NCBI GenBank assembly: GCA_043823745.1
Contig: JBDRAN010000044.1
Location: 853-64,852, forward strand
Source of the DNA: Candidatus Omnitrophota bacterium
GTDB taxonomy: Bacteria; Omnitrophota; Gorgyraeia; Duberdicusellales; 4484-171
Length of the DNA: 64,000 nt
Direction of reading: 5' to 3'
This document shows positions 2,202-54,292 of the stretch, one piece after another. Position 1 is the first letter of the stretch; each line of letters starts with the position of its first letter. The position numbers were made by a program, and so were the translations under genes. The notes below the pieces were generated by a model. That model was not told the DNA's origin, searched no databases, and saw only the letters and a program-made list of their open reading frames with translations.

Positions 2202-2714
2202 ATGAAAAAAATAATTTTTACCGCAATATGCTTATTGCTGAGTACGGGAAATGTGTTTGGCCAGATTCAAGAAGAACCGAAATATAAACTAAACCCCAGC
2301 GTAGATAAAGAATCTCCCGCCGGCATTTATATTCCAAAAGATTTAGAAGACTGTTTTAAAGAACTAAGAACCATGCTTGCCCCGGCTTTAATTGAAGAAA
2401 TGAAATCGGGAACAGAAAGCGACATGAACAAATACCATCGCAGCCTGGGAATGTGGTTAAGAAATAACTGGGGCTTATGGTCGGACTCGAGATTAAAGAA
2501 ATATTTCAATGATATAGGAATCCATCATCCTGATGATATGTCCGGCATTATTCTTACCTCATTCTGGCGGCATCTCAACAATAAACCGATACAGCTTCAG
2601 GACCAAATATCCTATTACCGACAATACTGGAAAGATATGGAGACAGACAAAGAAAAAAATCACAAAGCGGAAACGCCGACACAAGAATCGCGAGTAACCC
2701 AGGAGGGGCAATGA
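2202..2714 (+). CDS. Secreted hypothetical protein with an N-terminal signal peptide.
   Basis: N-terminus MKKIIFTAICLLLSTGNVFGQ is typical of a Sec signal. Its end overlaps the next gene by 4 nt (ATGA). Confidence 0.55.
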   Translation: MKKIIFTAICLLLSTGNVFGQIQEEPKYKLNPSVDKESPAGIYIPKDLEDCFKELRTMLAPALIEEMKSGTESDMNKYHRSLGMWLRNNWGLWSDSRLKKYFNDIGIHHPDDMSGIILTSFWRHLNNKPIQLQDQISYYRQYWKDMETDKEKNHKAETPTQESRVTQEGQ

Positions 2715-3097
2715 AAAAATTGATAGCAGTGGCGATACTTGCGCTATTGGCTAGTACGGTAAAAGCAGCGATATACAATCAAGAGATAACAGAGACGGCA
2801 AAAGTTACCTTCTCTTTAAATAAAGAAGGCACATTACAAGCGCTGGTTATCAAACATATTGAAGAAGGCTCGTATCCAAAAAGCGGATGGGTTAATTGCG
2901 CGGTGCAAAATGCGGAAATCGAAAAAAAATACGTGGCCCAGTTAAAAGGTAAAGCTCAAATAGAAGATTATTTTACCGTTACCTATATTATTACCGAGCA
3001 GAATAAACAAAGCCAGATTTTAAGTTACGAAGGAATCGTACTCCAGCTAGAGCCCTGGTCTCCGGTTTTTTTACATAAGGGCTCAGCCGAGCAATAA
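2711..3097 (+). CDS. Secreted hypothetical protein with a signal peptide.
   Basis: N-terminus MKKLIAVAILALLASTVKA. Its start is translationally coupled to the upstream ORF. Confidence 0.55.
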   Translation: MKKLIAVAILALLASTVKAAIYNQEITETAKVTFSLNKEGTLQALVIKHIEEGSYPKSGWVNCAVQNAEIEKKYVAQLKGKAQIEDYFTVTYIITEQNKQSQILSYEGIVLQLEPWSPVFLHKGSAEQ

Positions 3098-3247
3098 AGC
3101 CTTCCCTTGATCAAGCGTCATGCGCCAGATCGATGCTCCGCAAGCAGAGATCGATTATTGCGCGAGCCTTGACGGCACCCATTATGATGTGAATAAGGAT
3201 GGGGGAAATGATGCCGGGGATTATACTCTTCGTAACTGGTAGGTTAG

Positions 3248-3281
3248 CCAAGAAACGCATTTTTCAAATGCATTTCTTGGG
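3248..3281. terminator. Bidirectional terminator-like hairpin between convergent genes.
   Basis: ccaagaaacgcattt / aaatgcatttcttgg forms a 15-bp stem with one G·U pair and loop ttca. It sits immediately 3' of the era stop (3286-3288, minus strand). Confidence 0.45.
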
Positions 3282-3285
3282 TTAT

Positions 3286-4200
3286 TTAGGTGAGCCAGTA
3301 ACCGAGCTCTTGCAGGATGCGAGGTTTGTTTTGCCAATCACTCATAACTTCAACCCAGATATCAAGATAGACTTTTCTTCCGATGATCTTTTCGATACGC
3401 GGCCGAGCCCGCGAACCAATCTCTTTTAAAATAGCGCCTTTGGTGCCCACGATTATTTTCTTCTGAGAAGTCCTGTTAACATACACCACCACCTTGATGT
3501 AGGTAAGCGCTTTTTTCTCCCGTATCTCTTCAACCTCAACCGCCAATGAGTGCGGAAGTTCTTTGCTTAAATGCGTGAATAACTGCTCGCGTACCGCGTC
3601 AGCCACGCGAAACTTAAGCGGAAAATCGGTTGTTGTTTGGGCATCATAAAACGCGGGATTTTCGGGCAAATGCGCAAGGATTACTTTGGTTAGCTCATCA
3701 ACATTTTTTCCCGACTTTGCACAAGTCGGAAGATACGCAACCAAAAGATCTTCAGCAACCCCTTTTTGCGCCAGTAGACTTTTCCAGGCGCTGATATAAT
3801 CAGGCAAGAACTTCCCGCCTAAGTCCATTTTATTAAGCACCATAATAACCTTAATACTCTGGGAACTGAGGAAATTCATCACATCCTGCTCTTCCCGGCC
3901 CAGGCACCGGGAAACATCAGCGACATATAAGAGCAGATCGCAACCATCGACTGATTGTTTTGCAATGGTGTTAAGATGTATGGTCAGGCTATCGCGAAAC
4001 GAGTGAATTCCCGGCGTATCCACAAAAACAATTTGCCCCTCCTCGACGTTAAGAATTCCTTTTATCTGATGACGCGTGGTTTGCGGGATAGCTGAAATGA
4101 TACTTATCCGCGAACCGACAAAGGCGTTTAAGAGCGTCGATTTACCAACATTAGGCCGACCGATAATACCGACAAACCCTGATTTGAATTTTTTTTCCAT
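3286..4200 (-). CDS. era: GTPase Era.
   Basis: G1 motif GIIGRPNVGKSTL, G3 DTPG, NKxD-like NKMD, and a C-terminal KH domain. Length 304 aa. Confidence 0.9.
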   Translation of the reverse strand: MEKKFKSGFVGIIGRPNVGKSTLLNAFVGSRISIISAIPQTTRHQIKGILNVEEGQIVFVDTPGIHSFRDSLTIHLNTIAKQSVDGCDLLLYVADVSRCLGREEQDVMNFLSSQSIKVIMVLNKMDLGGKFLPDYISAWKSLLAQKGVAEDLLVAYLPTCAKSGKNVDELTKVILAHLPENPAFYDAQTTTDFPLKFRVADAVREQLFTHLSKELPHSLAVEVEEIREKKALTYIKVVVYVNRTSQKKIIVGTKGAILKEIGSRARPRIEKIIGRKVYLDIWVEVMSDWQNKPRILQELGYWLT

Positions 4201-4345: not shown

Positions 4346-5479
4346 TTATCGGCCACCCACGTAAGCGTCAAGCTGCTGCACATAATCAATCAGCACATCG
4401 ACTCCTTTATGGAGATTACTCACCTTAACACTCTCGTTTTTAGTGTGGGCGTTACCCTTTGAACCAAAACCAAACGCAAAACTCTCGATGCCTTGTGCCT
4501 CAAGAAAGTTAATCACGGTAGCGCCAAAGCTAGGGCTCAACGCAGAACGGATACGATGCCGGCGTAAGACTTCCCGCAATATCTTTATGGAGGGACTCTT
4601 GGTATCAATCTCTATCGGCTCCTGATGCGCGAGCACGGTAACGCGATACCGTATCTTCTGTTTACGGATCGCCTTTTCAATACGCGTGACAATCGAGTTC
4701 TGCGTCATTGATGGCAGATACCGGATATCTAATTCAAAAAAACAATAACCGGCAACGATATTGACCTTATCGCCTCCCACAAAACGGCCGACATTAATCG
4801 TTGGTTTCTTTAAAAGCGGATGTCTGAGGTAGGAAAATTTTCTATCGAGGATTTCTGTAATAATCGAGACAGCTCGCTCGACCGCGTTCACCCCCCGCTC
4901 CGGATACGCGCCGTGCGCTTCTTTGCCAAAGAGCTCAACACGCAGATGCAGCAGGCCCTTCTGAGCAACAATAATATTAAAATCATCGGCATCGAGGACT
5001 ACCCCGTAATCAATACCGCGTAGCTTCTGCGCAAGAGGTATGATGCCCCCGTAACTTCCCGTTTCCTCATCAGCTGAGAATGCAAAGACCAGATCGAGAT
5101 TACGCAAACGAATATTTTTTTCCCGCAATGAACGGATAAGCGCGAGGCTTACCGCAACATTCGCCTTACAGTCAGTCGCTCCCCGGCCATAAATCCTACC
5201 GGCAAAACGCGTCCCGGAAAGCGCCCCAAAACGCCACCGACCTGTTACCGGTACCGTATCGACATGCGGCGTAAAAATAATGGAACGCTTCCGGTGTAAC
5301 GAAGGTATGGTGCATACGAGGTTCGGCCGGCCGGATTTAAATTCGTAAATCTTCGAAACGATACCATAGCGCACAAGGTAGGTTTTGATGAACTCAATAA
5401 TCGCGGTTTCGTTCCCCGGCGGATTTTGAGAATCAATTCGCACGAGTGACTGCAATAGCCGCGTCACTTCTTCCTTCAT
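4346..5479 (-). CDS. M20 family metallopeptidase (ArgE/DapE-like deacylase).
   Basis: HVDTVP, GRGATDCKANVA and ADEETG metal-ligand motifs are typical of M20 ArgE/DapE enzymes. Confidence 0.8.
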   Translation of the reverse strand: MKEEVTRLLQSLVRIDSQNPPGNETAIIEFIKTYLVRYGIVSKIYEFKSGRPNLVCTIPSLHRKRSIIFTPHVDTVPVTGRWRFGALSGTRFAGRIYGRGATDCKANVAVSLALIRSLREKNIRLRNLDLVFAFSADEETGSYGGIIPLAQKLRGIDYGVVLDADDFNIIVAQKGLLHLRVELFGKEAHGAYPERGVNAVERAVSIITEILDRKFSYLRHPLLKKPTINVGRFVGGDKVNIVAGYCFFELDIRYLPSMTQNSIVTRIEKAIRKQKIRYRVTVLAHQEPIEIDTKSPSIKILREVLRRHRIRSALSPSFGATVINFLEAQGIESFAFGFGSKGNAHTKNESVKVSNLHKGVDVLIDYVQQLDAYVGGR

Positions 5480-7466
5480 ATACCTCCTTCAGCGATACAT
5501 CTAAGTAGTCTGCCGTAAACGGATTATAACCAAAATATGCAATCAAAAAATAGGCGGTTGAGGCAAGTGAGCCTGTCGAATCACCATGAGGGGTACGCCA
5601 GCCATGCCCCGTATCAACGTCGGCACGTGAGGCATAGGGCAGGCACGGATCTTCTCTGCCGATACGTGAAGGGGACGTAATAAGCATTTTCTGCAGTTCG
5701 TTGGAATAAAAAACTGCCTGATCGAGATATTTACGATACTTAACCGGGTCATTGTCTTTATAGTAATCGGCCATAACCTCAAATGATAATATCATCTGCG
5801 CGGTCCATTCCCCTGATACGATACCGCCCCGTGCCATATTTTTGAATTTTGAAAAATCGAATCCGCGAATGGTCACGTCCCCTTCTTTACGCTTAAACGA
5901 TGTCTCTACTTCGCAGGACTGTATCGCAAAATCAAGAATTGTTTCCGGGTTCATCTTAAGCGAAGATAAAACGTCGGGGCCGAAGGTGCTTATTGACCAG
6001 GCATAGGTATCTGTCGCGATCGTCGCATCTCCCTTGCCGCGCTTAACCGGCGCCCCATAACTGGTGTAGGCGTACCGGGAAATCCAGTTTTTTAGCTTCT
6101 CGGCGGCCAGGCGATGCGCAGGGTCACCGTTGACTTGATAGTACAGCGTAAAGAATGCATAGGCATCAAGATTGTGTTCGGTTGAAAACCAAGCGTCGCC
6201 GGGACCGCCGCGTATACCACCTTCACTATCCATCATGCTGGTGAGGAAGGAGGCAACCTTCTGCGCTATTGCAAGGTACTGGCGGTCTCCGGTCTTTTTT
6301 GTGTAATTAAGCACCGCGATACCGATCCACGCGTTCGGGCCACTGTGGACTACCGCCTCGGCGGGTTCGCCATTTGAATAATACGCGTTATAAATACTCT
6401 CATGGCGGCCAGTTTGGGTAAGATAAAAATCAAATATCTGCGCTGCGGCGGGAGCATCATCCATAATAAGAAAAACCGTCGAAGCGAGTGCCTGATCGTA
6501 GGTAAAACAGACTTTATCCAGATTCCTATCTCCTTCAAAACTCATCACAAGGCCTCGCACAAGGTCACGGCGGTTCTGTATCCATTGATAGAGCCCCTGG
6601 ATAATCTTCTGAGAAAAACCGGCGCGCGAGCGCTTCAGGGTATGCACTTTCGCCTCGAGCGCCGCCGACGATGTAACCCGCTCCTGGAGACGCTTGTCAA
6701 AGAATACGCCTTCTTTTTTACGGCGGGCGAGCTCATCTTTAAGGCGCGCAATTTTTTCTTCAAGCTTTTTCGCGACTTCAGTATTATGCGCCGCCTCAAC
6801 AATCGCGTACTCCCGGGTCGCATTGGCGAGGTCCTCTTCGAGGTTTGCAATCGTCTGCGTGATTCCTTGGCGTCGGCGTTCGAACGTCTCGTCGCGGCCA
6901 CGTTCGGCCAACAATGTGTTTTCAAGGGACGACCCACTCTCAATAACGCCGACATAATCACTTACGAGTTTTCTGTTCTCTTGGATGAGCGCGCTTGTTT
7001 TTACGGTCAGAAAAATAGCGGCGAGCGCAAGCCCGGTGACAAGGAAAGCGGTGACTCGAGGAGCGTAGTACTTAAGGAGCGCGAAACGAAAAAGACTTTT
7101 CAGGGATCCGGCGTGTTCCTCGGTAAACTCAAGACCTATTTTATACTGGGTAAAGTCTTTGTTGGTAACTTGAGTGCGCCACGTAATGCGCCCTTTGACA
7201 AAATACGCCTTCCCCAGGCTAAGATTAATCTTAAGTTCTAAGATCCCGTTCGGCGTTGAGCACTTATCCCAGAAACCCCACCATAGGTCATTGATAACCA
7301 GACAAATTCCGCCGCGGCTTATATCCTGCGTAAAACCCTGCAACCAGGGAGTAATACGTTTTCCGGAGGTATCGGCAACAAAAAACTCGACCGGCAACAC
7401 GGTCGCTATTCTAATGTATCGTCTTTTTTCTTGTTGGCGCATAGCGTCAGCGGTATTATCGGGCAC
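5433..7466 (-). CDS. PilZ-domain protein with a TM segment, a coiled coil, and a C-terminal alpha/alpha-toroid (six-hairpin glycosidase-like) domain.
   Basis: The N-terminus RRYIRI...DISRGGICL matches PilZ RxxxR / DxSxGG motifs. A hydrophobic helix (TAFLVTGLALAAIFL) follows, then a long charged coiled-coil stretch. The ~350-aa C-terminus has features typical of a glycoside-hydrolase-like domain (STEHNLDAYAFF, GDPAHRLA). Confidence 0.6.
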   Translation of the reverse strand: MPDNTADAMRQQEKRRYIRIATVLPVEFFVADTSGKRITPWLQGFTQDISRGGICLVINDLWWGFWDKCSTPNGILELKINLSLGKAYFVKGRITWRTQVTNKDFTQYKIGLEFTEEHAGSLKSLFRFALLKYYAPRVTAFLVTGLALAAIFLTVKTSALIQENRKLVSDYVGVIESGSSLENTLLAERGRDETFERRRQGITQTIANLEEDLANATREYAIVEAAHNTEVAKKLEEKIARLKDELARRKKEGVFFDKRLQERVTSSAALEAKVHTLKRSRAGFSQKIIQGLYQWIQNRRDLVRGLVMSFEGDRNLDKVCFTYDQALASTVFLIMDDAPAAAQIFDFYLTQTGRHESIYNAYYSNGEPAEAVVHSGPNAWIGIAVLNYTKKTGDRQYLAIAQKVASFLTSMMDSEGGIRGGPGDAWFSTEHNLDAYAFFTLYYQVNGDPAHRLAAEKLKNWISRYAYTSYGAPVKRGKGDATIATDTYAWSISTFGPDVLSSLKMNPETILDFAIQSCEVETSFKRKEGDVTIRGFDFSKFKNMARGGIVSGEWTAQMILSFEVMADYYKDNDPVKYRKYLDQAVFYSNELQKMLITSPSRIGREDPCLPYASRADVDTGHGWRTPHGDSTGSLASTAYFLIAYFGYNPFTADYLDVSLKEVYEGRSDAAIAVTRAN

Positions 7467-7505: not shown

Positions 7506-7889
7506 TCAGCTCTTTTGAATACTCTTTATCTTAGCGAAAAAATTTTTGAAACTCGCGTGCTGGCGCACGTTTTCAAGATCAGGATCCTGAAGAATATACG
7601 AGAACTCGTCATACCCAAGCAATACCGCTTTTTTTAGCTGCGTATATGCCTCCTCCACTTCCCCGAGCAAGGAAAGGCTGCAGGAAAGATTATAATGAAT
7701 AATGGGGTCCTCCGGTTTGAGCTGAACGAGCCGGCGATCGACCGCGAGGCCTTCCTTATAAAAACCCTTGCTGGTATACGCATTACCCAAAGATACGAGC
7801 GCCTGGATAAAGTTAGGCCTTTCTTTAATCAAGCTCTCGTAAAATCTGATTTCAAGGTCTTTTCTCTTGGAAACTCTTTTCTTAGCCAT
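7506..7889 (-). CDS. TPR-repeat protein.
   Basis: 127 aa with 3 TPR-like repeats (ALVSLGNAY..., IHYNLSC...). Overlaps the upstream gene by 8 nt. Confidence 0.6.
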   Translation of the reverse strand: MAKKRVSKRKDLEIRFYESLIKERPNFIQALVSLGNAYTSKGFYKEGLAVDRRLVQLKPEDPIIHYNLSCSLSLLGEVEEAYTQLKKAVLLGYDEFSYILQDPDLENVRQHASFKNFFAKIKSIQKS

Positions 7890-10245
7890 GGCGTTCTAAA
7901 ACAATCTCCTCGCGTAAAAGATACATTACTTCTTCCAAATGTTTTTTGAAATCCTGATATTTCGCAAGCGGCACGAACCGTTCTTTTATAGCAAATTCCT
8001 GGTAAAAATCAAGAGATTTTCCGCCTACCCTGCACGAAGAAATAAACGTGAACCACTCGGTGTCAACCGTATGATTACGCGGTACATACTTGACGGCCAA
8101 CACGGGCGGAAGCGTAACGGTCAACCGGGTAATTTTGCGGGTAATCCCCTCAAGCTCGATAGGAAATACACGCGTCTCTTTGCTTACAAAACCAACATCA
8201 AAGCTGATATCGCCCAACGCAGAAAGAATACGCATGTTATCAGCCGGATTGAGCAGCTTTTGTGCATCAAACGAATACCGCACGGCCATTGGTTTATTAT
8301 AATCCTTCAGATTCTCAACGCTATAATCACGGAGTTTACCCGAAGGATTAATCTGAACAATACGATCCTTAAAACCATCTTCGATATTCTGAGGATGTGT
8401 ATTGGTAAAATAGAAACGCTGTGCGGCAGAAAAAGAACCGGTCGTGGTCACCGTGCGCGTAATGCGCGCGTTTTCGTCTGCATCGATATCCATCCGGGTA
8501 TCGTAGGTGACTTCGTTGGTTCTTATCAGAGGAGTTCGCGCAATCTGATGGCCCTCATCCATACACACGAGCACCAATCGATCCTGGTCACCCGAAGGCA
8601 AATCGCCGAACGATGTTGTAGACGAGGTGGTATCCATAAAGATTAATTGGCCCTCCAGTGAAAGGGCCGCTATGGCATGATTGAAATTTACCGTTGGGAA
8701 ATCTTCGTGAATTGCGTACACCTCACGCGTCGGGATTAAAACAGGGTATGCCGTAAAGCCCGCTTCTTTAAGCAGCGCGACGAGCAATGTTGCCTTATCC
8801 TTACAATCGCCGTAGCGATTAGCAAAGATATCGATTGCCCGATGTGGCTCGTAACCGCTATCACCATACTCGACTGCAACATATCTGATATCCCGGGCGC
8901 AGAATTCATAAATCGCCCGAGCTCTTGCACGCGCGTCCGGACAATCGCGAAGGAGCGTCGCAAGGAACTTTTTCATTTCATCGTTGAGCGCGATTTTATC
9001 TTTATAAAGATTGTACCACCACGCATATACTTGATTCCAAGAAGAAAAACTGGTAATACCGATTGCGGGATTGACTTTTGGAAGCGGTGGCATCCCGGTT
9101 TCCGGCAATATTGGGGCGATATTCTCGAAACTCCACGTGTAGACGGTTCCTTCGGATCCTTGAACCACGACAGGCTCAAGCGCTAAGCCGCCAGCATACT
9201 CCTGATTCCTTTGTTCGATTTGGACGGTTGTTTTCTTCGGTACACTGAGGCGAAACCGTGCGCGTGCCACCGGAAAACGCTCTCTGGCATGATAGAGAAG
9301 ACTAAAATTGCTTTTTGCGACCAGGCGCGAGGAATAGATTTTAGCTTTATATTCGATGATAGCGCCGGTATCAACCGACGGCATTGAAATGATCAGGGCG
9401 CGGGCATTGCTGTAGAGTGGAAAATTTAAGTACTTAGAGACATCGCGGATATTTTCTTTGCCCGCATATACGACACTTCCCTGCGACGTGATGGTACGGG
9501 CATATTCAAGCTCAACTCGCTCATCGGTTGAGTCATAACCGATCTCAACTTCGGCGAGCCCCTTGCCGCTCTCTCTGAGCACCTTTTGGACAATATAAAG
9601 CGTTGAAACAGCGGTATCGTCATCTTTAACTTCGATGGATTCGTCAGCCAAAACAATAACCGCTTCCTCCTTGGTGATAGCGGCAATAAACTGCTCTTTC
9701 TCAGCAAGAAGTGCGGCAAGCTCTGATGGAATTACTCCTTCGACCGAAATACCGATCTTAGCGATACGTTCACGGGCGGCTACGTCATAGGGCGGCTTGA
9801 CGTTACGATAGACGGCAATCGCTTTCGGGAAAAGATTCTTCTCTTCAAGCGTCGCGCCGTACAAATACATATACTCGCTATCATCAAGCTTCCCCACCTT
9901 TTCAAACACATTCAGCGCATCCGCGAAATCTTTAAGATGAAAAGCGGCCTTCGCGTACAGGGCGCGCAACGGCTGCGCGGTCAAACCTTCCGTTAACGCT
10001 TTGACCTTCTGATAATCATGAAAGCGCCAGAAAAATTGCGCCGCCTCCAAACGTATATCATCATTCGCGGGTTCGCGTGCGAGCCGTTCTTCGTAACGGG
10101 CGCACGCCCGCTGGTAAACAGAGAACGCGTCATGCCCCGAAGGATTACATGCGACAACAAAAAGAAACGCAACCAAGAAAATTTCAGGTACTCGATATTT
10201 TTTTTGCATAGGAAGAATGTCCGTGGCAATACCGGATTTACGCAA
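7882..10245 (-). CDS. Transglutaminase-like cysteine-protease-domain protein (DUF3857/transglutaminase architecture) with an N-terminal signal and TPR-like region.
   Basis: YGDCKDKATLLVALLKEAGFTAYPVLI is the canonical transglutaminase-like Cys motif. 787 aa. Confidence 0.7.
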   Translation of the reverse strand: MRKSGIATDILPMQKKYRVPEIFLVAFLFVVACNPSGHDAFSVYQRACARYEERLAREPANDDIRLEAAQFFWRFHDYQKVKALTEGLTAQPLRALYAKAAFHLKDFADALNVFEKVGKLDDSEYMYLYGATLEEKNLFPKAIAVYRNVKPPYDVAARERIAKIGISVEGVIPSELAALLAEKEQFIAAITKEEAVIVLADESIEVKDDDTAVSTLYIVQKVLRESGKGLAEVEIGYDSTDERVELEYARTITSQGSVVYAGKENIRDVSKYLNFPLYSNARALIISMPSVDTGAIIEYKAKIYSSRLVAKSNFSLLYHARERFPVARARFRLSVPKKTTVQIEQRNQEYAGGLALEPVVVQGSEGTVYTWSFENIAPILPETGMPPLPKVNPAIGITSFSSWNQVYAWWYNLYKDKIALNDEMKKFLATLLRDCPDARARARAIYEFCARDIRYVAVEYGDSGYEPHRAIDIFANRYGDCKDKATLLVALLKEAGFTAYPVLIPTREVYAIHEDFPTVNFNHAIAALSLEGQLIFMDTTSSTTSFGDLPSGDQDRLVLVCMDEGHQIARTPLIRTNEVTYDTRMDIDADENARITRTVTTTGSFSAAQRFYFTNTHPQNIEDGFKDRIVQINPSGKLRDYSVENLKDYNKPMAVRYSFDAQKLLNPADNMRILSALGDISFDVGFVSKETRVFPIELEGITRKITRLTVTLPPVLAVKYVPRNHTVDTEWFTFISSCRVGGKSLDFYQEFAIKERFVPLAKYQDFKKHLEEVMYLLREEIVLERHG

Positions 10246-10531
10246 TCAGGGCAAGAATATCCTTAATGATATCACCTTTCTTTATTCCTAAACGTCGCGC
10301 GGCAGGAGTCAATGAATGCACGCGCGCGCGCAGTGCATCCGCAATTGTGGCGACACCGGTAATTTTGACCGCAGCATCGTTACATTTACGTGCAACTGAG
10401 GTATTAAGATACCCGCACATAACATACCCGCGGCTACCCCGCAGCACAATAAGATTTTTACCTTGCAACGGAAATAAAAGCGCTTCTATCGTTTGCGATC
10501 CGGTTTTAATTTTTTTAGTGACCGCAAGCAT
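10238..10531 (-). CDS. Small conserved protein, DUF1805/YunC-like.
   Basis: 97 aa, MCGYLN motif and a Gly-rich middle region. The assignment is from memory of the family only. Confidence 0.4.
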   Translation of the reverse strand: MLAVTKKIKTGSQTIEALLFPLQGKNLIVLRGSRGYVMCGYLNTSVARKCNDAAVKITGVATIADALRARVHSLTPAARRLGIKKGDIIKDILALIA

Positions 10532-21129: not shown

Positions 21130-21711
21130 TCATTTGCGCGCGATCGCCAAAAGACTCAATGCAATCGAAAAGAGCAAAATCATATTTACAACATTTATCC
21201 AGCTAACCGGCGCAACCGGAACCGTTATATTGATGAAGCGCGCGAGGAATCCTAAAACGGCTCCGATGACTCCGATCAACAAGAAGATAACCGATAATAC
21301 TTTCATAAGCGTGCCTCCTCTTTCCTGGTCTTGTTTTTTCCGAATATCGATAATCTTTTGATCGATAAATACGCTCATATCTTCAGGGAGCCCGTCAAAC
21401 TCGACGCCGACTTCAAATCCACCGAGTTTTTCGAGGAAATTAACCCGTATCACCCGAGCCATGACACGCACGGTCTTGGCATGCGCGGGAAAAGCGATTT
21501 CAAGCTCAAGGATGCTGTTTATGGAAAGATACTCATTCGTAAAAAGCAGGGCTCCGCTTGAGGAGATGTTACGGATAAAGGAAAGCGTGCGGATTTCCTC
21601 GGGCTTTTTGACAATTTTATATTTTAAAAGATGATGAATGCTTAGACGCACACACCGCCGTTTTTCCCGATCTCGCGTGCCGGAAAAATTTGCCACTGAA
21701 TCCTCCCCCAT
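21130..21711 (-). CDS. PilZ-domain protein with two C-terminal TM helices.
   Basis: RRCVRLSIHH...NISSSGALL matches RxxxR / D/NxSxxG PilZ motifs. A C-terminal hydrophobic hairpin follows. Confidence 0.65.
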   Translation of the reverse strand: MGEDSVANFSGTRDREKRRCVRLSIHHLLKYKIVKKPEEIRTLSFIRNISSSGALLFTNEYLSINSILELEIAFPAHAKTVRVMARVIRVNFLEKLGGFEVGVEFDGLPEDMSVFIDQKIIDIRKKQDQERGGTLMKVLSVIFLLIGVIGAVLGFLARFINITVPVAPVSWINVVNMILLFSIALSLLAIARK

Positions 21712-23623: not shown

Positions 23624-24088
23624 TTATGTGAGGGGGCGGTGTCGCATGAAGAGACGGCGCGCGCAATAGAGAGTAACGAGGCTATTAAAAACGGTACTGA
23701 TGATAAGAATGGGTCGCGCACCGAGAGAGGCGACGCCTTCCTGAAGTCCTTCGACACGCACCAGAGCCCCGGTACGCGTCAGCGCGCATAGATTATTCAA
23801 TAAAAAGAAACTATGAAAAAAAAGTGCGCACCAGAAACCCCGGGCAGACCCTCGTTTAATAGCGCCATAGAGCCAGAAAAGCAGAAGCGCAAGCGCTGCG
23901 CGTGCCGCAAAAAGCGACGGTCCGCCGACCTGGTGAGTGCCAACAAATGTACGCGTGTAAAACAGATGAGGTGAAATGAGGTGAAAGAAAAGAAGAAAAA
24001 GGTAGAATTTCGAAAGGATTGATAATCCTAACTCATTCTCTATCAATGTCTTACGTTCTATTGACATGGGCTTCTTTTTATGGTACAT
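23624..24088 (-). CDS. Hypothetical membrane protein (weakly supported).
   Basis: 154-aa ORF with hydrophobic segments and no recognisable motif. It overlaps another frame in a 600-bp region without a confident gene. Confidence 0.2.
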   Translation of the reverse strand: MYHKKKPMSIERKTLIENELGLSILSKFYLFLLFFHLISPHLFYTRTFVGTHQVGGPSLFAARAALALLLFWLYGAIKRGSARGFWCALFFHSFFLLNNLCALTRTGALVRVEGLQEGVASLGARPILIISTVFNSLVTLYCARRLFMRHRPLT

Positions 24089-24105: not shown

Positions 24106-24351
24106 ATGAAGAAAACAGCGATTATTCTGATGTTGGCAGGTATAGGGGTTATGTGGGGACAGTTCGTTTTAAGCCAGAATAGCGAAGAGCTTATCCCTCG
24201 CGAGAATACTGCCATCTCCCGGGGAACTGTTTCTTCCGCAATCAGCGAAGACGAAAAAGACGAAGATAAGACTGCTAAAGATTACATAATCACCCTGCCC
24301 TTTCCGGCGCTGGATACCAACCTCGCGGTCAGCGAAGAAGCCGTTAGCTAA
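24106..24351 (+). CDS. Small secreted or membrane-anchored acidic protein.
   Basis: 81 aa with an N-terminal hydrophobic signal/anchor and an acidic C-terminal half. A promoter-like sequence lies upstream. Confidence 0.35.
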   Translation: MKKTAIILMLAGIGVMWGQFVLSQNSEELIPRENTAISRGTVSSAISEDEKDEDKTAKDYIITLPFPALDTNLAVSEEAVS

Positions 24352-25661
24352 TCTTTTCGTTGGTCAACAATAAAACAACTACGTCCCTCGCGTTTTGCTT
24401 TCTTCTTTATTTCAGCGGCTATGTTGGTAATTTCGCCATAACTGGTGATGGTGCGATGAACGTTGGTGACCCCCGCCAACGATATCGTCATAATGGGAAA
24501 ACTGCATATTTTACCATCACGCGCGCTCGCCACAATACACCCTTTCTCAAGATCCTCCGCATTATAGAGGCTGCGTATTCTTTTATCGAATTCGGAGATA
24601 ATATAGTTCGCGATCGAATCGGCGTGGTCGGGAGCCGCCAACAAGATAAAATCATCGCCGCCTTCATGTCCGAGAAAATCATGGCTATCGCCCTTATTTT
24701 TGATCGCTTCCCTAAAAATATCAGCTGCTATCTTTATTGCCTCATCGCCTTGATGCACTCCATATTTATCGTTAAAGGCTTTAAAATTATCAAGATCGCA
24801 GTAAATAACCGTAAACTTCTTGCCCTCGCGTATTCGCCGCTCAACTTCTTCCATAATGACAATATTACCCGGAAGTTTTGTCAGCGGATTAGCGTTTTCG
24901 GCGCGATCTTTCATTTTAATTAACTCTGTGGCCATCGAGTTAAATGTTTCGGCAAGCTCTTCAAGCTCATCGCCCGTATTAACGCGTACGCGTAAATCAA
25001 GCCTTCCCGAAGAAATCGTCTTTGCTGCCTCGTTAAAAACCCTAATGGGCCCGATAATCAACCTCGCCAGAAAAATGCCCAGCGCGATGTTGACGAGAAC
25101 CAGGAGAAAGCCGACAAAGAATGCCGGCTGATAGACAGCGCGAAATGCCTTCCAGATATCGCCGAGGTAAAAAAATATTTTAGCGATAAAGAGAATACGG
25201 TCTTTCTCGCGCAGGGGAACATAGATAATTATCAATTTTTCTTTTTTATCAATAACCGTTTCTCCTCGTATAAACTCACTTCGTTTGATTTTATCAAGCA
25301 TTTCATAATCATTATAATCGGCGGGGGAACCAAGCAGTTGTTCGTCGGTTGACGCAACGACTTTTCCTCCGAGATCAAAGATGTACGCTTTTTTGATCTC
25401 TTCCGGGTACTCCTCAACAATTGAATGCAAAACACTACCGAGAAGATTGACCTTTTCTTTGGTCGACTTTGACGCATTAGCGATTATTTCGTTGAGCGCT
25501 TCTTCGATTTGCCGGGAATATTCTTTCGAGCTATATTCGAGGTAACGGCCGGTTACTTCCAAACCATGGGAAAGCTGAATGGTAACAAAAATTCCGATCG
25601 TACAGATCGTAAATATCGTTAAAAGGATAATAATCCGGCTTTTAAGCGTTGATGTTCTCAT
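24348..25661 (-). CDS. Membrane sensor GGDEF-family protein (TM–periplasmic domain–TM–HAMP–GGDEF) with a noncanonical GGDDF signature.
   Basis: A HAMP-like segment is followed by DLDNFKAFNDKYGVHQGDEAIK and HEGGDDFILLA, which align to the GGDEF domain. No RxxD I-site is visible. Confidence 0.7.
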   Translation of the reverse strand: MRTSTLKSRIIILLTIFTICTIGIFVTIQLSHGLEVTGRYLEYSSKEYSRQIEEALNEIIANASKSTKEKVNLLGSVLHSIVEEYPEEIKKAYIFDLGGKVVASTDEQLLGSPADYNDYEMLDKIKRSEFIRGETVIDKKEKLIIIYVPLREKDRILFIAKIFFYLGDIWKAFRAVYQPAFFVGFLLVLVNIALGIFLARLIIGPIRVFNEAAKTISSGRLDLRVRVNTGDELEELAETFNSMATELIKMKDRAENANPLTKLPGNIVIMEEVERRIREGKKFTVIYCDLDNFKAFNDKYGVHQGDEAIKIAADIFREAIKNKGDSHDFLGHEGGDDFILLAAPDHADSIANYIISEFDKRIRSLYNAEDLEKGCIVASARDGKICSFPIMTISLAGVTNVHRTITSYGEITNIAAEIKKKAKREGRSCFIVDQRKD

Positions 25662-42193: not shown

Positions 42194-43747
42194 CTATTGT
42201 ACACGCCAAATTACAATACGAGGTTTTTCCTTATTATCGAAGACGAGATGCCATCCGGTGGCCTGTGCACGCTTTGATTGAGGATTCAGGAGCCAGCGGG
42301 CCGGACGGAATCTTCTTACCGCGTAACGCTCATCAAAAACCACCCATCGTATCCCTAAGTTCTGCACGGTGACAGCGAGAGATCTTAACTGACCGCGGTC
42401 AAGACGCTCAAAAAGCTCCCCTGGGCGGTGCGCATACAATAAAACATGCGGTTGCGAGACAAGGATGCGGTCACCGGGAGAAGCGTGTCTACGCAAAAAC
42501 GTGCCGGCGATTTTAAACTCTGTTGCCTGCGTTTTTAAATAATCCCCGGTATTTTCGATGGTCGCAAAGGTACTAATAGAAAATACCACGAGGAACCCGA
42601 CAATAATGCCGATCTTTTTTTCGCTGACTATGATGCGCCACATTGCCAGGCCAGAAGCTATCACGAGAGGCAAGACAGGCAGGAAATAACGCAGTTCAAG
42701 CTTGTAGGTCGCTGCCAGAGACAAGAGATACATCGTAAGCGCCCCGCCCCAAAGGATCAAGACACGCTTATGGTTCGAAGACCGCAGAAAAAGAAAATAA
42801 CCCGGAACCGCTAGGTATGCGAGCCAATAGGCCGCCGCAAGCAGGCGTTGCGGTATCCAAACAACCACCTGATGAATCCATGAGCTGTATAAGCGGAGCC
42901 AATCATTCAAGGGAATCTGCCCAAGAGATTTAAGCCGATCGGCGGCGTAGGGAACATAAATAGGGTAAGTGACCTGACGCCAGTTATCCGTGTAGAAAGG
43001 AAAGCCAAAAAAAATCATGTTTGTAATAAGCTGGGGAAAGGCTCCTGTCAGAAGACCAAAAGTTCCCATGCATACTGCTTTAATAAAAAAGCCCCGGTGA
43101 CACCTCTGATACACTACAGGAATGATGATGAGCGGCCAAAAGACTATAAAAATGGTCTTCACCGCGAACGCAAACCCCAAACACAGGCCAGCAAAAAAGA
43201 TTTTCAGGAAACTTGTGCGCGTGACGAGAATCCAAATTGCCGTCATAAGAAAAGCGGCTGCCAACATATCAAAGAGCGTCATAGAGCTATAAATGAATAC
43301 GGTGGGATTAACAAAAAGCAGCCAGCCGGTCATAAGCCCTAAGGAAGGCCGATACAGGCGAGCGATTACCTTCCAGGAAGCTAGAAGATAAAAAAATCCG
43401 GCCATCATAGAAACAAGCTTCGCTGCAGCAAAGGTGTTGTGGAGAACTGTATCGAAGAGCCGTATTGTAAGCATCCCACCGATTCCTCCCCCTAAACGAA
43501 ACGCGGCATATGCAGGAAAATGATCGGTAAAGAGAGCCCGACTAAACACCATGTAATAAACACCATCGGTTTCGTGGCCGACCAACGGTACGCTGCGAAA
43601 GCCGGTCATAAACGCCATCGCAGCACTATAGAAAAAAAGCAAAGAAAATAAACCAAGCCCCTGGACAATGCGCCGGTTAAAGCAATTTTCCGGGAACCTC
43701 CGCAAACGCGTGCTCATTAACGAACTAATTGCATACTTCAAACGCAT
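42194..43747 (-). CDS. GT-C fold membrane glycosyltransferase, paralog B. About 55% identical to the 40456..42006 product.
   Basis: Same architecture, with GHETDG in loop 1 and a KPRIVIWRVQ C-terminus. It is a tandem duplicate. Confidence 0.6.
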   Translation of the reverse strand: MRLKYAISSLMSTRLRRFPENCFNRRIVQGLGLFSLLFFYSAAMAFMTGFRSVPLVGHETDGVYYMVFSRALFTDHFPAYAAFRLGGGIGGMLTIRLFDTVLHNTFAAAKLVSMMAGFFYLLASWKVIARLYRPSLGLMTGWLLFVNPTVFIYSSMTLFDMLAAAFLMTAIWILVTRTSFLKIFFAGLCLGFAFAVKTIFIVFWPLIIIPVVYQRCHRGFFIKAVCMGTFGLLTGAFPQLITNMIFFGFPFYTDNWRQVTYPIYVPYAADRLKSLGQIPLNDWLRLYSSWIHQVVVWIPQRLLAAAYWLAYLAVPGYFLFLRSSNHKRVLILWGGALTMYLLSLAATYKLELRYFLPVLPLVIASGLAMWRIIVSEKKIGIIVGFLVVFSISTFATIENTGDYLKTQATEFKIAGTFLRRHASPGDRILVSQPHVLLYAHRPGELFERLDRGQLRSLAVTVQNLGIRWVVFDERYAVRRFRPARWLLNPQSKRAQATGWHLVFDNKEKPRIVIWRVQ

Positions 43748-52201: not shown

Positions 52202-54292
52202 TCACTTCGATTCCATACTATGCGCGCCAGAAAACAGCTCGCGCCGAAGGAATAAAGACCTTTTTGTGAAAGGAACTTCTAATTTTAAAAATCCCGCCGC
52301 ATTCGGATTATCGAGAAATTCTTTGCGTTCACTGGCTTCAAATCGTATGGATTGTTTTAGAAGCCCGGTTGCCAATACCATATTTATTTCATGTTGCTTC
52401 ATAAAAGCAGTAAAAGACTCATTCGTACCGACTCCCATGAGGCTTGTATAATTATCTCCTACGTAAATATCGAATTTACCTTCTGCCGTCAGTAAATTGA
52501 CTTTATCGCGTATCCGCAGTAACTTTATAAACTCTAGTGTCTTTAGATTGCCCTGCCAGTCATGATGCATTCTTTGCGTAGTTATCTTTTTTGGCATCAA
52601 ACCAAAGGAATATCCTACGCCTGAGGGATGCTCCACAATCGGATACGGCGTGAGTAATACTATACAAAGGCCTGTCGCAAAGGCTTTGACTACCCCCGGC
52701 CGCTGCATACAAACATTTTTGTTAAAAGCATGTGAGGCGAAATACGCGATAAGAATTATTATAATCGTGAGTTGCAAAATAAGGTAATGCTCTCGGGGAT
52801 AGACTACGAACGCTGACAGCATACTAGCCGCGGAGACCAGCAGCAAAACAACACCAAGATGTTTAAGGAGAGTATAATCGATGGTTCGAACAATACGTCT
52901 TCTCGCGACTACCAAACAGATACCAAGCGCCCCCAGAAAGAGGACATAGAATAACCGCATCACGGTATCCAGCGGCCGCCAACAGGAAGGATTGGGCTTT
53001 ATTAATAGCAATTGCATCAACGTTGGAGTATACCGATATACGTTATAGAAGACATGCCGCAAAAATTCTTTCGGATTATTCAATATTGCCGTAACAACAG
53101 TATTGGCATTACCAAAGGCACTTTTTGTAATGTCTACCCAGACCTCCCACGGGTCAACCAGACTATGGTGCCGCTGAACATAATTGATACTGAAATGCTG
53201 GGCAAATGACAGCCAGCTTTTGGCAATGGTAGTATGATCGCCTGTCAAACGTATCGGTTCATACGGCTTAGACTCCCACAAGGGATTACCAAAAATAGCA
53301 ATCATCGCGACGCCGATCAAGACAAAAGAAAATATTTTACTCAGGTGCAGACACGGCTTTCCAGATATTTTCACCGATGCTCGTAAATACCAAAACAGCG
53401 CAAGCGCACCCAGAAGAAGAAGTGAAACAAAATATTCTGGCCTAACGAAAGAAACCGTTAAGATGCCCAATCCCAGTATATAGTAATAATTTTCCTTTGA
53501 TGTGGTGAAGGTGGCAAGGATAAGGAACAGGAGAAAGATCGACAACGCATAAAGGGTAACCCACGTATTATCCCATCGAAAAACTCCTGACATCAAGAAT
53601 AAGAAAGAAGCAAGGGCCGAGATGAAAGGCATGACGTGGAGCCGTCTCAGGTAAATATAGAGCAACAGCGTTGTCGAAGAAACCAAGATTTTAAAATTCA
53701 TATAATAGAGTTGCACATAATCTTTACTGAAAAAAGACAATACAAAATACCAAACCGCATACAAAGGCGCCCACTGCGCATGCGGTAGCCCCTTAATCGG
53801 CAGCTTGATGCCTCTTTGTAAATAATACGTCTCATCCCAAAGGCTGATATCCATGATCGCTTCAGCGGAGTAGGTATATTTCATTACCGCAAGCATAAGA
53901 AATAAAAAGACAATTATGTCGACGCCTAATATCTTAACCATTGAACGCCGCTCCGGTGTAACGGACACCGCAGCACCATCGATGTCTACCGGGCCCCCAT
54001 GGCAGGAGGTTTTAACGGTACGCAAGAAATAAAGAATCATACATAGAAAAAAATAGACATAAACACTTACGAAAAGCGCCTGCTGGCATATCTCATCTCC
54101 TATCGCATAGTAATGTTCCAACGAATACAGCAACTGCGCTTCAATGACCCTATTCAAGAAACCAAACGACTCGCCGTGATACATCGCGGCGATGAGTTTA
54201 TGGCCAAAGCAGAGATATAAAAACCATCCCGTCAAGAGCAACGCAAGTAACGGCGACAGAGGGAGCGCTAATTTTTTTTTATCGTTGAACAT
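52202..54292 (-). CDS. Large polytopic membrane protein of unknown function (possible GT-C-like or polymerase).
   Basis: 696 aa with more than 12 predicted TM helices and an acidic motif (DISLWDETYY) in an early loop. There is no soluble catalytic motif. Confidence 0.4.
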   Translation of the reverse strand: MFNDKKKLALPLSPLLALLLTGWFLYLCFGHKLIAAMYHGESFGFLNRVIEAQLLYSLEHYYAIGDEICQQALFVSVYVYFFLCMILYFLRTVKTSCHGGPVDIDGAAVSVTPERRSMVKILGVDIIVFLFLMLAVMKYTYSAEAIMDISLWDETYYLQRGIKLPIKGLPHAQWAPLYAVWYFVLSFFSKDYVQLYYMNFKILVSSTTLLLYIYLRRLHVMPFISALASFLFLMSGVFRWDNTWVTLYALSIFLLFLILATFTTSKENYYYILGLGILTVSFVRPEYFVSLLLLGALALFWYLRASVKISGKPCLHLSKIFSFVLIGVAMIAIFGNPLWESKPYEPIRLTGDHTTIAKSWLSFAQHFSINYVQRHHSLVDPWEVWVDITKSAFGNANTVVTAILNNPKEFLRHVFYNVYRYTPTLMQLLLIKPNPSCWRPLDTVMRLFYVLFLGALGICLVVARRRIVRTIDYTLLKHLGVVLLLVSAASMLSAFVVYPREHYLILQLTIIIILIAYFASHAFNKNVCMQRPGVVKAFATGLCIVLLTPYPIVEHPSGVGYSFGLMPKKITTQRMHHDWQGNLKTLEFIKLLRIRDKVNLLTAEGKFDIYVGDNYTSLMGVGTNESFTAFMKQHEINMVLATGLLKQSIRFEASERKEFLDNPNAAGFLKLEVPFTKRSLFLRRELFSGAHSMESK

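Follow-up and report, generated by a model that had tools for sequence, protein, structure and literature searches.

We report here a predicted inner-membrane protein of Candidatus Omnitrophota in which a canonical PilZ domain is joined, through a single transmembrane helix and a helical hairpin, to a periplasmic (alpha/alpha)6 toroid, and which may act as a c-di-GMP-controlled periplasmic glycan-processing enzyme and as the partner of a transglutaminase-type peptidase encoded upstream. We hold this reading with moderate confidence, counting in its favor the PilZ match and motifs, the single membrane segment, the toroid fold, its invariant residues, the stable fusion and the conserved partner. 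Counted against it are the lack of a match to any curated glycosidase family, a best profile match to a solved sequence with an E-value of 7e-4, and the non-canonical GGDDF signature of the single GGDEF protein that is encoded in the window (the whole 64-kb stretch of DNA that was analysed). The protein and its parts are:

5433..7466, minus strand: whole open reading frame, 677 aa, PilZ + transmembrane helix + helical hairpin + (alpha/alpha)6 toroid (sequence, Pfam, homolog alignment, AlphaFold2)
7122..7430, minus strand: PilZ domain, residues 13-115 (Pfam 37.8 bits, AlphaFold2 strands, motifs in homologs)
6993..7055, minus strand: transmembrane helix, residues 138-158 (Kyte-Doolittle 2.04; unbroken helix 116-225 in AlphaFold2)
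6573..6992, minus strand: periplasmic helical hairpin or coiled-coil stalk, residues 159-298 (AlphaFold2 helices; arm and tip lengths in 116 sequences)
5517..6572, minus strand: (alpha/alpha)6 toroid, residues 299-650 (AlphaFold2 pLDDT 93, Foldseek, invariant residues)

The reading frame is open throughout its 677 codons, and a plus-strand reading of the same interval was ruled out because its translation is full of stops. The first-pass annotation of this DNA had called the gene without stating its strand; the order that it gave for the product, PilZ, membrane helix, coiled coil and alpha/alpha toroid, is borne out by Pfam, hydropathy and AlphaFold2. The listed start is a GTG at 7466; the homolog alignment suggests that the true start is probably the ATG at 7442 (M9, 'MRQQEKRRYIR'), and the choice between them leaves the architecture unaffected. 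Scans for promoters and terminators gave signals no better than in shuffles, and whole-protein searches of Pfam, NCBIfam and PDB sequences returned, outside PilZ, coiled-coil noise only.

Given more than 1160 homologs, of which the top 120 are 44-57% identical along their full length, the reading frame is far beyond chance. The PilZ-toroid fusion is present in at least 206 species-level genomes, the best 80 of which are nearly all labelled Omnitrophota, and PilZ is still present in members with toroid identity down to 28-36%; judged from these sequences, the fusion is stable across divergent members. The phylum Omnitrophota is uncultured; its members are very small bacteria, possibly dependent on a host, and carry giant surface proteins. 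Because the gene occurs widely among them and keeps its synteny, it probably marks a core envelope function. The literature searched contains no description of the combination of PilZ, transmembrane helix, coiled coil and toroid.

The PilZ domain and its link across the membrane

The N-terminal domain matches PilZ (PF07238) over residues 13-128 with an E-value of 2.5e-9 and a score of 37.8 bits (cut-off 22.5), and divergent orthologs score 28-32 bits. AlphaFold2 places the beta-barrel strands within residues 18-114, followed by a C-terminal helix from residue 116. The motifs for binding of c-di-GMP are R15-x-x-x-R19, with both arginines in 107/107 complete homologs, and D48-I-S-R-G-G53, with D or N at position 48 in 115/115 and G53 likewise in 115/115. 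At the third position of this (D/N)x(S/A)xxG motif the window protein has a serine and most orthologs have a glycine, a variation on the S/A consensus. The domain is thus canonical with its putative c-di-GMP-binding motifs intact, and the PilZ call made earlier from the RxxxR...DxSxGG pattern withstands a profile search, with a Pfam score above threshold and both motifs aligned in all complete homologs. The alignment also reveals an unusually invariant insert, N59-D-L-W-W-G64, and further invariant positions on the PilZ surface (P40, Q43-G-F45, N59-D-L-W62, and G64).

A single hydrophobic segment spans residues 138-158 (Kyte-Doolittle 2.04), and on the same scale there is no second transmembrane candidate in the 677-aa protein; the topology check that the first-pass annotation had proposed therefore yields one membrane segment. 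In the AlphaFold2 model this segment is a direct extension of the PilZ C-terminal helix, which continues unbroken from residue 116 to 225. Residues 159-298 are all helical, with a hydrophobic periodicity strongest at 3.5 residues, and helices 116-225 and 229-298 (pLDDT 81-93) are joined by a turn at 226-228 into a hairpin, the geometry of which is that of the monomer prediction. The hairpin arms are about 64 and 52 residues long, and among 116 aligned sequences the arm lengths are constant and the tip length ranges from 15 to 54 residues.

Fold, relatives and probable chemistry of the toroid

Residues ~299-650 are predicted by AlphaFold2 (pLDDT 93, pTM 0.93) to form twelve alternating helices in an (alpha/alpha)6 toroid, and Foldseek matches it with a probability of 1.00 to many six-hairpin enzymes, as the proposed alpha/alpha-toroid fold would predict. 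TMq is 0.57-0.65 to cellobiose-2-epimerase/AGE, GH76, the GH15-like 5z3a and MmpH, and 0.50-0.51 to GH144; GH76 structures are also seen at 0.53-0.58, and the sequence identity to these structural matches is 15% or less. The MmpH paper offers no catalytic residues transferable to the toroid. The only paper found to cite 5Z3A concerns homologs of GH15. Searches of Pfam, NCBIfam and PDB sequences gave no match to the toroid of the window protein, and as far as its sequence can tell it is outside every curated family; there is no second toroid copy within the 64-kb window.

The nearest family by sequence profile is that of the GH76 alpha-1,6-mannanases, which share the fold. The best match to a solved sequence is 4mu9 (E-value 7e-4), which was deposited under the name 'GH73' yet aligns with the GH76 motif, and the GH76 entries have E-values of 0.02-0.3. 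However, the 'YYDDNxW' of 4mu9, whose adjacent Asp residues we take to be the GH76 catalytic pair, lies opposite 'HSGPNAW' in the toroid, such that 'DD' is replaced by 'GP', and the family-invariant E430 of the toroid aligns with a Cys in 4mu9. GH76 membership was rejected because this alignment leaves the toroid without the catalytic Asp-Asp. The window protein has no match to the Pfam GH76 family (PF03663) at E<=0.01, and relatives score 19.6-26.6 bits against its cut-off of 25.9.

The toroid family comprises ~830 cluster representatives, and in a set of 45 diverse members (about 25% mean identity, including domains of 2000-3300 aa proteins) Y323, D324, E430, D486, E553, and Y611 are identical in all 45, and G376 is also invariant. 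By AlphaFold2 secondary structure, the acidic residues D324, E430, D486, and E553 are situated one each in the first turn of inner helices 1, 5, 7, and 9, and it is at the inner-helix starts that the catalytic pocket of six-hairpin enzymes forms. Since these acidic residues are invariant and the histidines vary (H374 in 17/45, H431 in 26/45, H621 in 16/45), the pattern favors a carboxylate, hydrolase-type chemistry over epimerisation. The family, uncurated and putatively carbohydrate-active, has a clear invariant residue set. One of the two glycosidase-like motifs picked out in the first-pass annotation, 'STEHNLDAYAFF', is real and includes E430; the other, 'GDPAHRLA', is unconserved and sits where the sequences vary.

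We assign only a marginal probability to AGE-type epimerisation or isomerisation of a sugar or polymer in the periplasm. The AGE superfamily (cellobiose 2-epimerase, YihS, N-acylglucosamine 2-epimerase) does lead the structural comparison (E-values as low as 3e-10, TMq ~0.6), the top Foldseek matches being cellobiose 2-epimerases, a glucose 2-epimerase and YihS; NCBI gives one paralog the name 'AGE family epimerase/isomerase', and the PilZ-type subfamily itself has H374, H431, and H621, whose match to the AGE histidines was judged by helix position and not by superposition. Nonetheless, none of these histidines approaches the 45/45 of the carboxylates, identity to AGE enzymes is 9-15%, Pfam gives no GlcNAc_2-epim match for the window protein, and AGE enzymes are cytoplasmic and act on free sugars whereas the toroid is extracytoplasmic. 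The variable histidines lead us to reject AGE-type epimerisation as the family function and, set against four invariant carboxylates, they disfavor the epimerisation that had been proposed for this protein.

Conserved partner and gene neighborhood

The genes flanking the PilZ-toroid gene are:

7882..10245, minus strand: TPR + DUF3857 + transglutaminase-core lipoprotein, upstream partner (Pfam; sequence; conserved adjacency)
7506..7889, minus strand: small TPR protein, 127 aa, between the lipoprotein and PilZ genes (Pfam and NCBIfam TPR_END_plus, 55 bits)
4346..5479, minus strand: ArgE/DapE-family M20 deacylase, downstream (Pfam, sequence)

The phylum-wide conserved partner, as identified from sequence and synteny, is the transglutaminase-like lipoprotein, which the first-pass annotation overlooked. 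Its gene is directly upstream on the same strand in 54/59 informative loci, and the product matches DUF3857 and Transglut_core in Pfam, with no solved relative by sequence. The probable start is M13 at 10209, the lipobox cysteine is Cys33 (conserved in 46/50), and the Cys481/His523/Asp538 triad is intact in 50/50. The M20 deacylase has no signal peptide, and its listed reading frame overlaps the 3' end of the PilZ gene by 47 nt; it is adjacent in 32/79 loci, with Era directly after in 18/79, and is probably a housekeeping gene that is a frequent but not constant neighbor. Both it and a neighboring aminotransferase were left out of the system, since they look like ordinary ArgE/DapE and class-I enzymes.

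The small TPR protein lacks a signal peptide, and its gene, the start of which overlaps the upstream stop by 8 nt, is present in 44/59 loci. It is the kind of cytoplasmic partner needed by an outside-in sensor, in which the toroid binds a periplasmic glycan and an inward signal alters PilZ binding of c-di-GMP or of a protein such as this one; the extra PilZ surface is so unusually invariant as to suggest a fixed partner, which would suit such a scheme. We consider it very unlikely, however, as the invariant carboxylate set of the toroid looks catalytic, and PilZ domains are receivers for which no output of their own is known.

A very large polysaccharide cluster occupies 14-64 kb of the window on the same strand as the PilZ-toroid gene, with Wza, Wzc, an outer-membrane barrel, a membrane-anchored PilZ protein and a HAMP-GGDEF protein ~7-18 kb upstream. 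AlgL, BcsZ, and PslG are trimming or clearing enzymes of their own polysaccharide pathways, and the toroid could similarly be a dedicated exopolysaccharide enzyme that trims or clears the polymer of the neighboring Wzx/Wzy-Wza-Wzc pathway, with c-di-GMP coupling it to synthesis. The proximity of this large same-strand cluster and the occurrence of a Wzy_C gene and a TPR gene upstream in some relatives are consistent with this, but housekeeping genes (tRNA-binding, YjbQ, RNase T, AsnC, aminotransferase) intervene, and adjacency to the export module is seen within 8 kb flanks in only about five closer relatives and not at loci L002 or L004. Moreover, the conserved gene block includes no glycosyltransferase or synthase, the conserved pairing being with the transglutaminase-like lipoprotein, and we regard a dedicated exopolysaccharide role as unlikely. 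The secreted-polysaccharide trimming envisaged in the first-pass annotation may nonetheless occur, given the Wza/Wzc module ~7 kb upstream, although that association is confined to closer relatives.

Proposed mechanism and comparison with known c-di-GMP systems

In the reading that we favor, that of a c-di-GMP-controlled glycan-processing enzyme, the protein would be a c-di-GMP effector of the inner membrane whose output in the periplasm is enzymatic. The PilZ barrel would be kept just beneath the membrane, and its binding of c-di-GMP would send a signal via the rigid helix, transmembrane segment and hairpin, probably within a dimer, and thereby switch the activity, position or partner binding of the periplasmic domain. 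The toroid would represent a new family of glycoside hydrolases or transglycosylases with a cell-envelope or secreted glycoconjugate as its target, and would cooperate with the upstream lipoprotein, a putative transglutaminase-fold Cys-His-Asp enzyme, the two attacking the glycan and peptide portions of one substrate; adjacency of their genes is, however, no proof that they share one. To our knowledge, the well-studied PilZ effectors all either gate a synthase or work within the cytoplasm. A PilZ domain connected across the membrane with an enzyme-like domain in the periplasm would, if true, represent a direct 'inside-out' c-di-GMP control of envelope glycan chemistry.

Alg44, the Pseudomonas alginate co-polymerase that partners the Alg8 synthase, similarly has an N-terminal canonical PilZ domain, a single transmembrane helix and a periplasmic domain. 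The resemblance to it that was noted earlier holds for this topology but goes no further, as the window protein has a hairpin and toroid in the periplasm with no HlyD match in Pfam, and there is no synthase in the conserved block. In Alg44 the periplasmic part is HlyD/MFP-like and the PilZ C-terminal helix participates in dimerisation (bioRxiv 10.1101/814665). By analogy, the corresponding helix of the PilZ-toroid protein probably mediates dimerisation.

The GH8 enzyme BcsZ, the PL5 enzyme AlgL, and Listeria PssZ are likewise carbohydrate-active alpha/alpha-toroid domains that lie beyond the cytoplasmic membrane and belong to systems regulated by c-di-GMP. Each of these glycanases is a protein distinct from the receptor (BcsA-PilZ, Alg44, PssE), whereas the window protein unites receptor and toroid in a single chain, and its toroid has no match to any of these families.

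The LapD-LapG system is comparable in that a c-di-GMP receptor of the inner membrane, with its output in the periplasm, is encoded next to a cysteine peptidase that faces the periplasm, here a putative transglutaminase-fold enzyme, and it differs in having a degenerate GGDEF-EAL in place of PilZ and the LapD periplasmic domain in place of the toroid; PilZ is the sole Pfam match of the window protein, in which there is no GGDEF-EAL, HAMP or LapD periplasmic domain. A rather improbable reading is that the toroid is mainly a docking platform in a similar inside-out switch, with c-di-GMP-dependent capture or release of the adjacent cysteine peptidase that processes a surface protein, possibly a giant one. 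The near-constant pairing of the receptor gene with a periplasm-facing lipoprotein with an intact triad and the rigid helical link through the membrane in the AlphaFold2 model would fit such a switch, as would the toroid domains within proteins of 2000-7900 aa, at least one of which (P0249, 5959 aa) is from Omnitrophota. A GH76-like domain recognised by structure only is also described in giant Omnitrophota proteins (bioRxiv 10.1101/2023.11.21.568195). However, the receptor has no domain homologous to LapD, the peptidase matches Pfam Transglut_core, and the invariance of the seven pocket-type residues extends to standalone secreted copies and giant-protein copies that have no PilZ domain, which argues for catalysis or ligand binding rather than mere docking. 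We give a similarly slim chance to a broader version, a phylum-wide, non-homologous LapD-LapG analogue in which c-di-GMP, via the PilZ domain, transmembrane helix and hairpin, would make the toroid capture, release or co-act with the lipoprotein peptidase, controlling the processing of glycosylated surface or giant proteins, in which this toroid domain recurs, and thereby how the cell attaches to hosts or prey.

The giant Omnitrophota proteins ('Archaeovorins') are akin to the window protein in that the toroid family occurs in giant proteins, the published GH76-like domain being a possible member of it, but they lack PilZ and are secreted or giant multidomain proteins. Standalone toroid homologs carry signal peptides, and the contexts of standalone paralogs vary, with NlpC/P60 at one locus and nothing informative at two others. 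Elsewhere, the toroid adjoins, or is fused with, other peptidases (NlpC/P60 and subtilase S8).

The PilZ-toroid open reading frame and its architecture

The PilZ-toroid open reading frame has the coordinates given in the first-pass annotation (5433–7466) but lies on the minus strand, and it runs uninterrupted over 677 residues from a GTG; because aligned homologs start about eight residues after this GTG, translation more likely begins at the ATG at 7442 (M9). The sole Pfam domain is PilZ (residues 13–128, E 2.5e-9, 37.8 bits with a cut-off of 22.5). Pfam has no match in the other ~550 residues, and searches of NCBIfam and of PDB sequences returned only coiled-coil noise. A hydropathy scan gives a single transmembrane segment (residues 138–158, mean Kyte-Doolittle 2.04), and the full-length AlphaFold2 model, built with 36 homologs as input (pLDDT 86, pTM 0.77), has the following elements:

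residues 18–114, PilZ beta-barrel
residues 116–225, unbroken helix that includes the transmembrane segment
residues 229–298, second helix, after a turn
residues ~319–645, twelve alternating helices (the toroid)

The proposed order of PilZ, transmembrane helix, helical stalk and toroid is thus borne out, with rigid helices leading through the membrane to an extracytoplasmic toroid. Alignment of the window protein with 115 homologs (116 sequences in all) shows helical arms fixed at 64 and 52 residues, joined by a segment of anything from 15 to 54 residues, as expected of a hairpin with a free tip.

The motifs for binding c-di-GMP claimed for the PilZ domain are intact: R15 and R19 are kept in all 107 homologs with a complete N-terminus, position 48 is D or N and G53 is present in 115 of 115, and at the third motif position G is commonest, with S and A as alternatives. 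PilZ is present even in members in which toroid identity is just 28–36%. A survey of PilZ proteins reports that the PilZ domains of fusion proteins invariably retain c-di-GMP binding, and that the PilZ C-terminal helix provides partner contacts and Alg44 dimerisation (bioRxiv 10.1101/814665); here that helix leads directly into the membrane (AlphaFold2 and hydropathy). The homolog alignment also reveals an additional, unusually invariant PilZ surface (P40, Q43-G-F45, N59-D-L-W62, and G64). The likeness to Alg44 noted earlier holds for topology and for nothing beyond it. Bcs, Alg and Pss systems have the periplasmic toroid glycanase in a different protein from the receptor, whereas here the two parts share one chain, and we found no description of such a fusion in the PilZ survey, the Omnitrophota giant-gene study, or c-di-GMP literature searches.

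The toroid as a six-hairpin family

Modelled alone by AlphaFold2 with 26 diverse relatives, the toroid reaches pLDDT 93 and pTM 0.93, and Foldseek matches it in the PDB exclusively to (alpha/alpha)6 toroid enzymes, confirming the fold first suggested from sequence features. The matches (E-values 3e-10 to 5e-8, identities 9–15%) include cellobiose and glucose 2-epimerases, YihS, and N-acylglucosamine-epimerase family proteins, together with GH76 mannanases, the mycobacterial MmpH hydrolase, a GH15-related glycosidase (5z3a), and GH144. Query-normalised TM-scores are 0.57–0.65 for most of these and 0.50–0.51 for GH144, and judged from the model no single family within the six-hairpin fold appears favoured.

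With residues 285–677 as query, a full HMMER search through 1.84 billion cluster representatives identified 832 relatives at E<=1e-3, including 91 at E<=1e-30, in three groups:

~650 aa, PilZ type
~370–500 aa, standalone, many with N-termini resembling signal peptides
1000–7900 aa, toroid embedded in a larger protein

Y323, D324, G376, E430, D486, E553, and Y611 are identical in 45 of 45 aligned relatives, S309 and W380 each in 43, and D480 in 41. The central pocket of six-hairpin enzymes is built by the N-termini of inner helices, and in the model D324, E430, D486, and E553 are the first or second residues of helices 1, 5, 7, and 9; helix order would thereby place these invariant carboxylates, which are of catalytic type, at the pocket. 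The histidines are variable, with H374, H431, and H621 present in just 17, 26, and 16 of the 45 relatives. Residue conservation thus makes carboxylate-based chemistry (hydrolase or transglycosylase) more likely than His/His epimerisation, which had been one of the activities proposed, and that the toroid is an AGE-type epimerase is most improbable.

The family profile has marginal matches to PDB sequences, the best being 4mu9 (E 7e-4), followed by AprG (1.6e-3) and named GH76 entries (0.02–0.3). Although deposited as 'GH73', 4mu9 aligns through a GH76 motif, with 'YYDDNxW' opposite 'HSGPNAW' and the invariant E430 opposite a Cys. The two adjacent Asp residues, which we take to be the GH76 catalytic pair, face Gly-Pro, and we therefore reject assignment to GH76. 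Pfam matches to the relatives are sub-threshold or barely at threshold (GH76, GH88, GlcNAc-2-epimerase, C5-epimerase, GH127, and LanC-like). We conclude that the toroid is a new family inside the six-hairpin group.

Several homologs (P0178, P0193, P0206, P0227, P0231, P0249, and P0267) carry the toroid within proteins of 3000–7900 aa, sometimes in several copies, and at least one is from Omnitrophota. The giant-gene preprint describes in giant Omnitrophota proteins a GH76-like domain visible by structure only, probably of the same family.

Distribution, partner genes and a possible mechanism

A word-indexed search found more than 1160 PilZ-toroid homologs, with database names 'PilZ domain-containing protein' or 'hypothetical'; the top 120 share 44–57% identity over the full length, and the named ones are all Candidatus Omnitrophota. 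Scanning a single genome for each GTDB species gave 206 loci, the best 80 of which are full-length with few exceptions (those cut by contig ends) and labelled nearly always as Omnitrophota or with MAG-type names ('uncultured Planctomycetia', 'uncultured bacterium'). Among these loci are full-length orthologs on a 5 kb contig (locus L014, JAIWAR010000068.1) of a Methanosarcinales bin ('Methanosarcinales archaeon') and at loci L015–L018 and others labelled 'uncultured Planctomycetia'. Because the synteny is Omnitrophota-type, these cases seem to stem from errors of binning or labelling and not from true occurrence outside the phylum.

Gene order among the loci is strikingly conserved: tRNA-binding protein, YjbQ, RNase T-like exonuclease, AsnC, aminotransferase, DUF1805, transglutaminase-like lipoprotein, small TPR protein and PilZ-toroid, often followed by an M20 deacylase and then Era. 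Those nearest the PilZ-toroid gene in the window are:

10238–10531, minus strand, DUF1805 protein of 97 aa, tightly packed between the aminotransferase and transglutaminase-like genes and kept in many loci
7882–10245, minus strand, transglutaminase-like lipoprotein of 787 aa (TPR, DUF3857, and transglutaminase core)
7506–7889, minus strand, small TPR protein, scoring 55 bits against the NCBIfam 'TPR end-of-group' domain, between the lipoprotein and PilZ-toroid genes

Counting loci with sufficient flank, a few of which are duplicate fetches of one contig, the transglutaminase-like gene adjoins the PilZ-toroid gene on the same strand in 54 of 59 and is its most conserved neighbour across Omnitrophota; 44 of 59 have the small TPR gene, M20 comes next in 32 of 79, and Era follows directly in 18 of 79. 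Sequence comparison yields no solved relative of the lipoprotein. Since Cys481, His523, and Asp538 are invariant among 50 distinct orthologs and the lipobox Cys33 is kept in 46, it is very probably a functional cysteine peptidase or amidase, anchored in the membrane and facing the periplasm. Neither the small TPR protein nor the M20 enzyme has a signal peptide; the former is a possible cytoplasmic partner of the conserved PilZ surface N59-D-L-W-W-G64. The M20 and aminotransferase neighbours resemble ordinary ArgE/DapE and class-I enzymes.

We propose that c-di-GMP binding would shift the PilZ/helix arrangement, probably within a dimer by analogy with Alg44, and that the shift would pass via the transmembrane helix and hairpin to alter toroid activity, position or partner binding, with toroid and lipoprotein jointly cleaving or remodelling an envelope glycoconjugate. 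We regard this reading as evenly poised. A sequestration switch like that of LapD/LapG is decidedly unlikely, and a glycan sensor working from the outside in very improbable.

The glycan-domain-plus-peptidase theme recurs, with the toroid fused to a subtilase and a second paralog (P0194-type) directly after an SH3 + NlpC/P60 peptidase gene in one genome. This paralog (2241–3560 at locus L086) is standalone, secreted and ~435 aa long; its named members are mostly from Omnitrophota, and one carries the NCBI name 'AGE family epimerase/isomerase'.

The polysaccharide cluster

The wider window holds a very large polysaccharide cluster:

14185–64000, minus strand, ~50 kb uninterrupted same-strand run of polysaccharide/LPS-type genes, reaching the window end
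21130–21711, minus strand, second PilZ protein of 193 aa (RxxxR and NxSxxG motifs, two C-terminal hydrophobic helices)
24348–25661, minus strand, HAMP-GGDEF protein with the signature GGDDF, not GG(D/E)EF
42194–43747, 52202–54292, and 23624–24088, minus strand, ORFs of 517, 696, and 154 aa lacking Pfam matches at E<=1e-4

It encodes two Wzy_C proteins, Wzc, Wza, a PEP-CTERM-type outer-membrane barrel, five GT2, five GT1/GT4 and three GT9 glycosyltransferases, PMT_2, PIG-L + methyltransferase, DegT, Polysacc_synt_2, a 582 aa TPR protein, and unusually many radical-SAM enzymes (three B12-binding, one SPASM, and one methyltransferase fusion). Such a cluster lends something to the earlier suggestion of exopolysaccharide trimming, and to the toroid being a glycanase dedicated to that pathway, but housekeeping genes separate it from the PilZ-toroid gene and the adjacency of cluster and gene was observed in closer relatives only, and we consider a dedicated glycanase unlikely. 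The second PilZ protein lies within the Wza/Wzc/outer-membrane-barrel export module and is likely a membrane-anchored c-di-GMP receptor of that pathway. From its signature, the HAMP-GGDEF protein may not supply c-di-GMP but instead be a degenerate cyclase or a receptor. Plus-strand genes are few in the window, and one (2202–2714) encodes a DUF6794 protein (E 3e-35).
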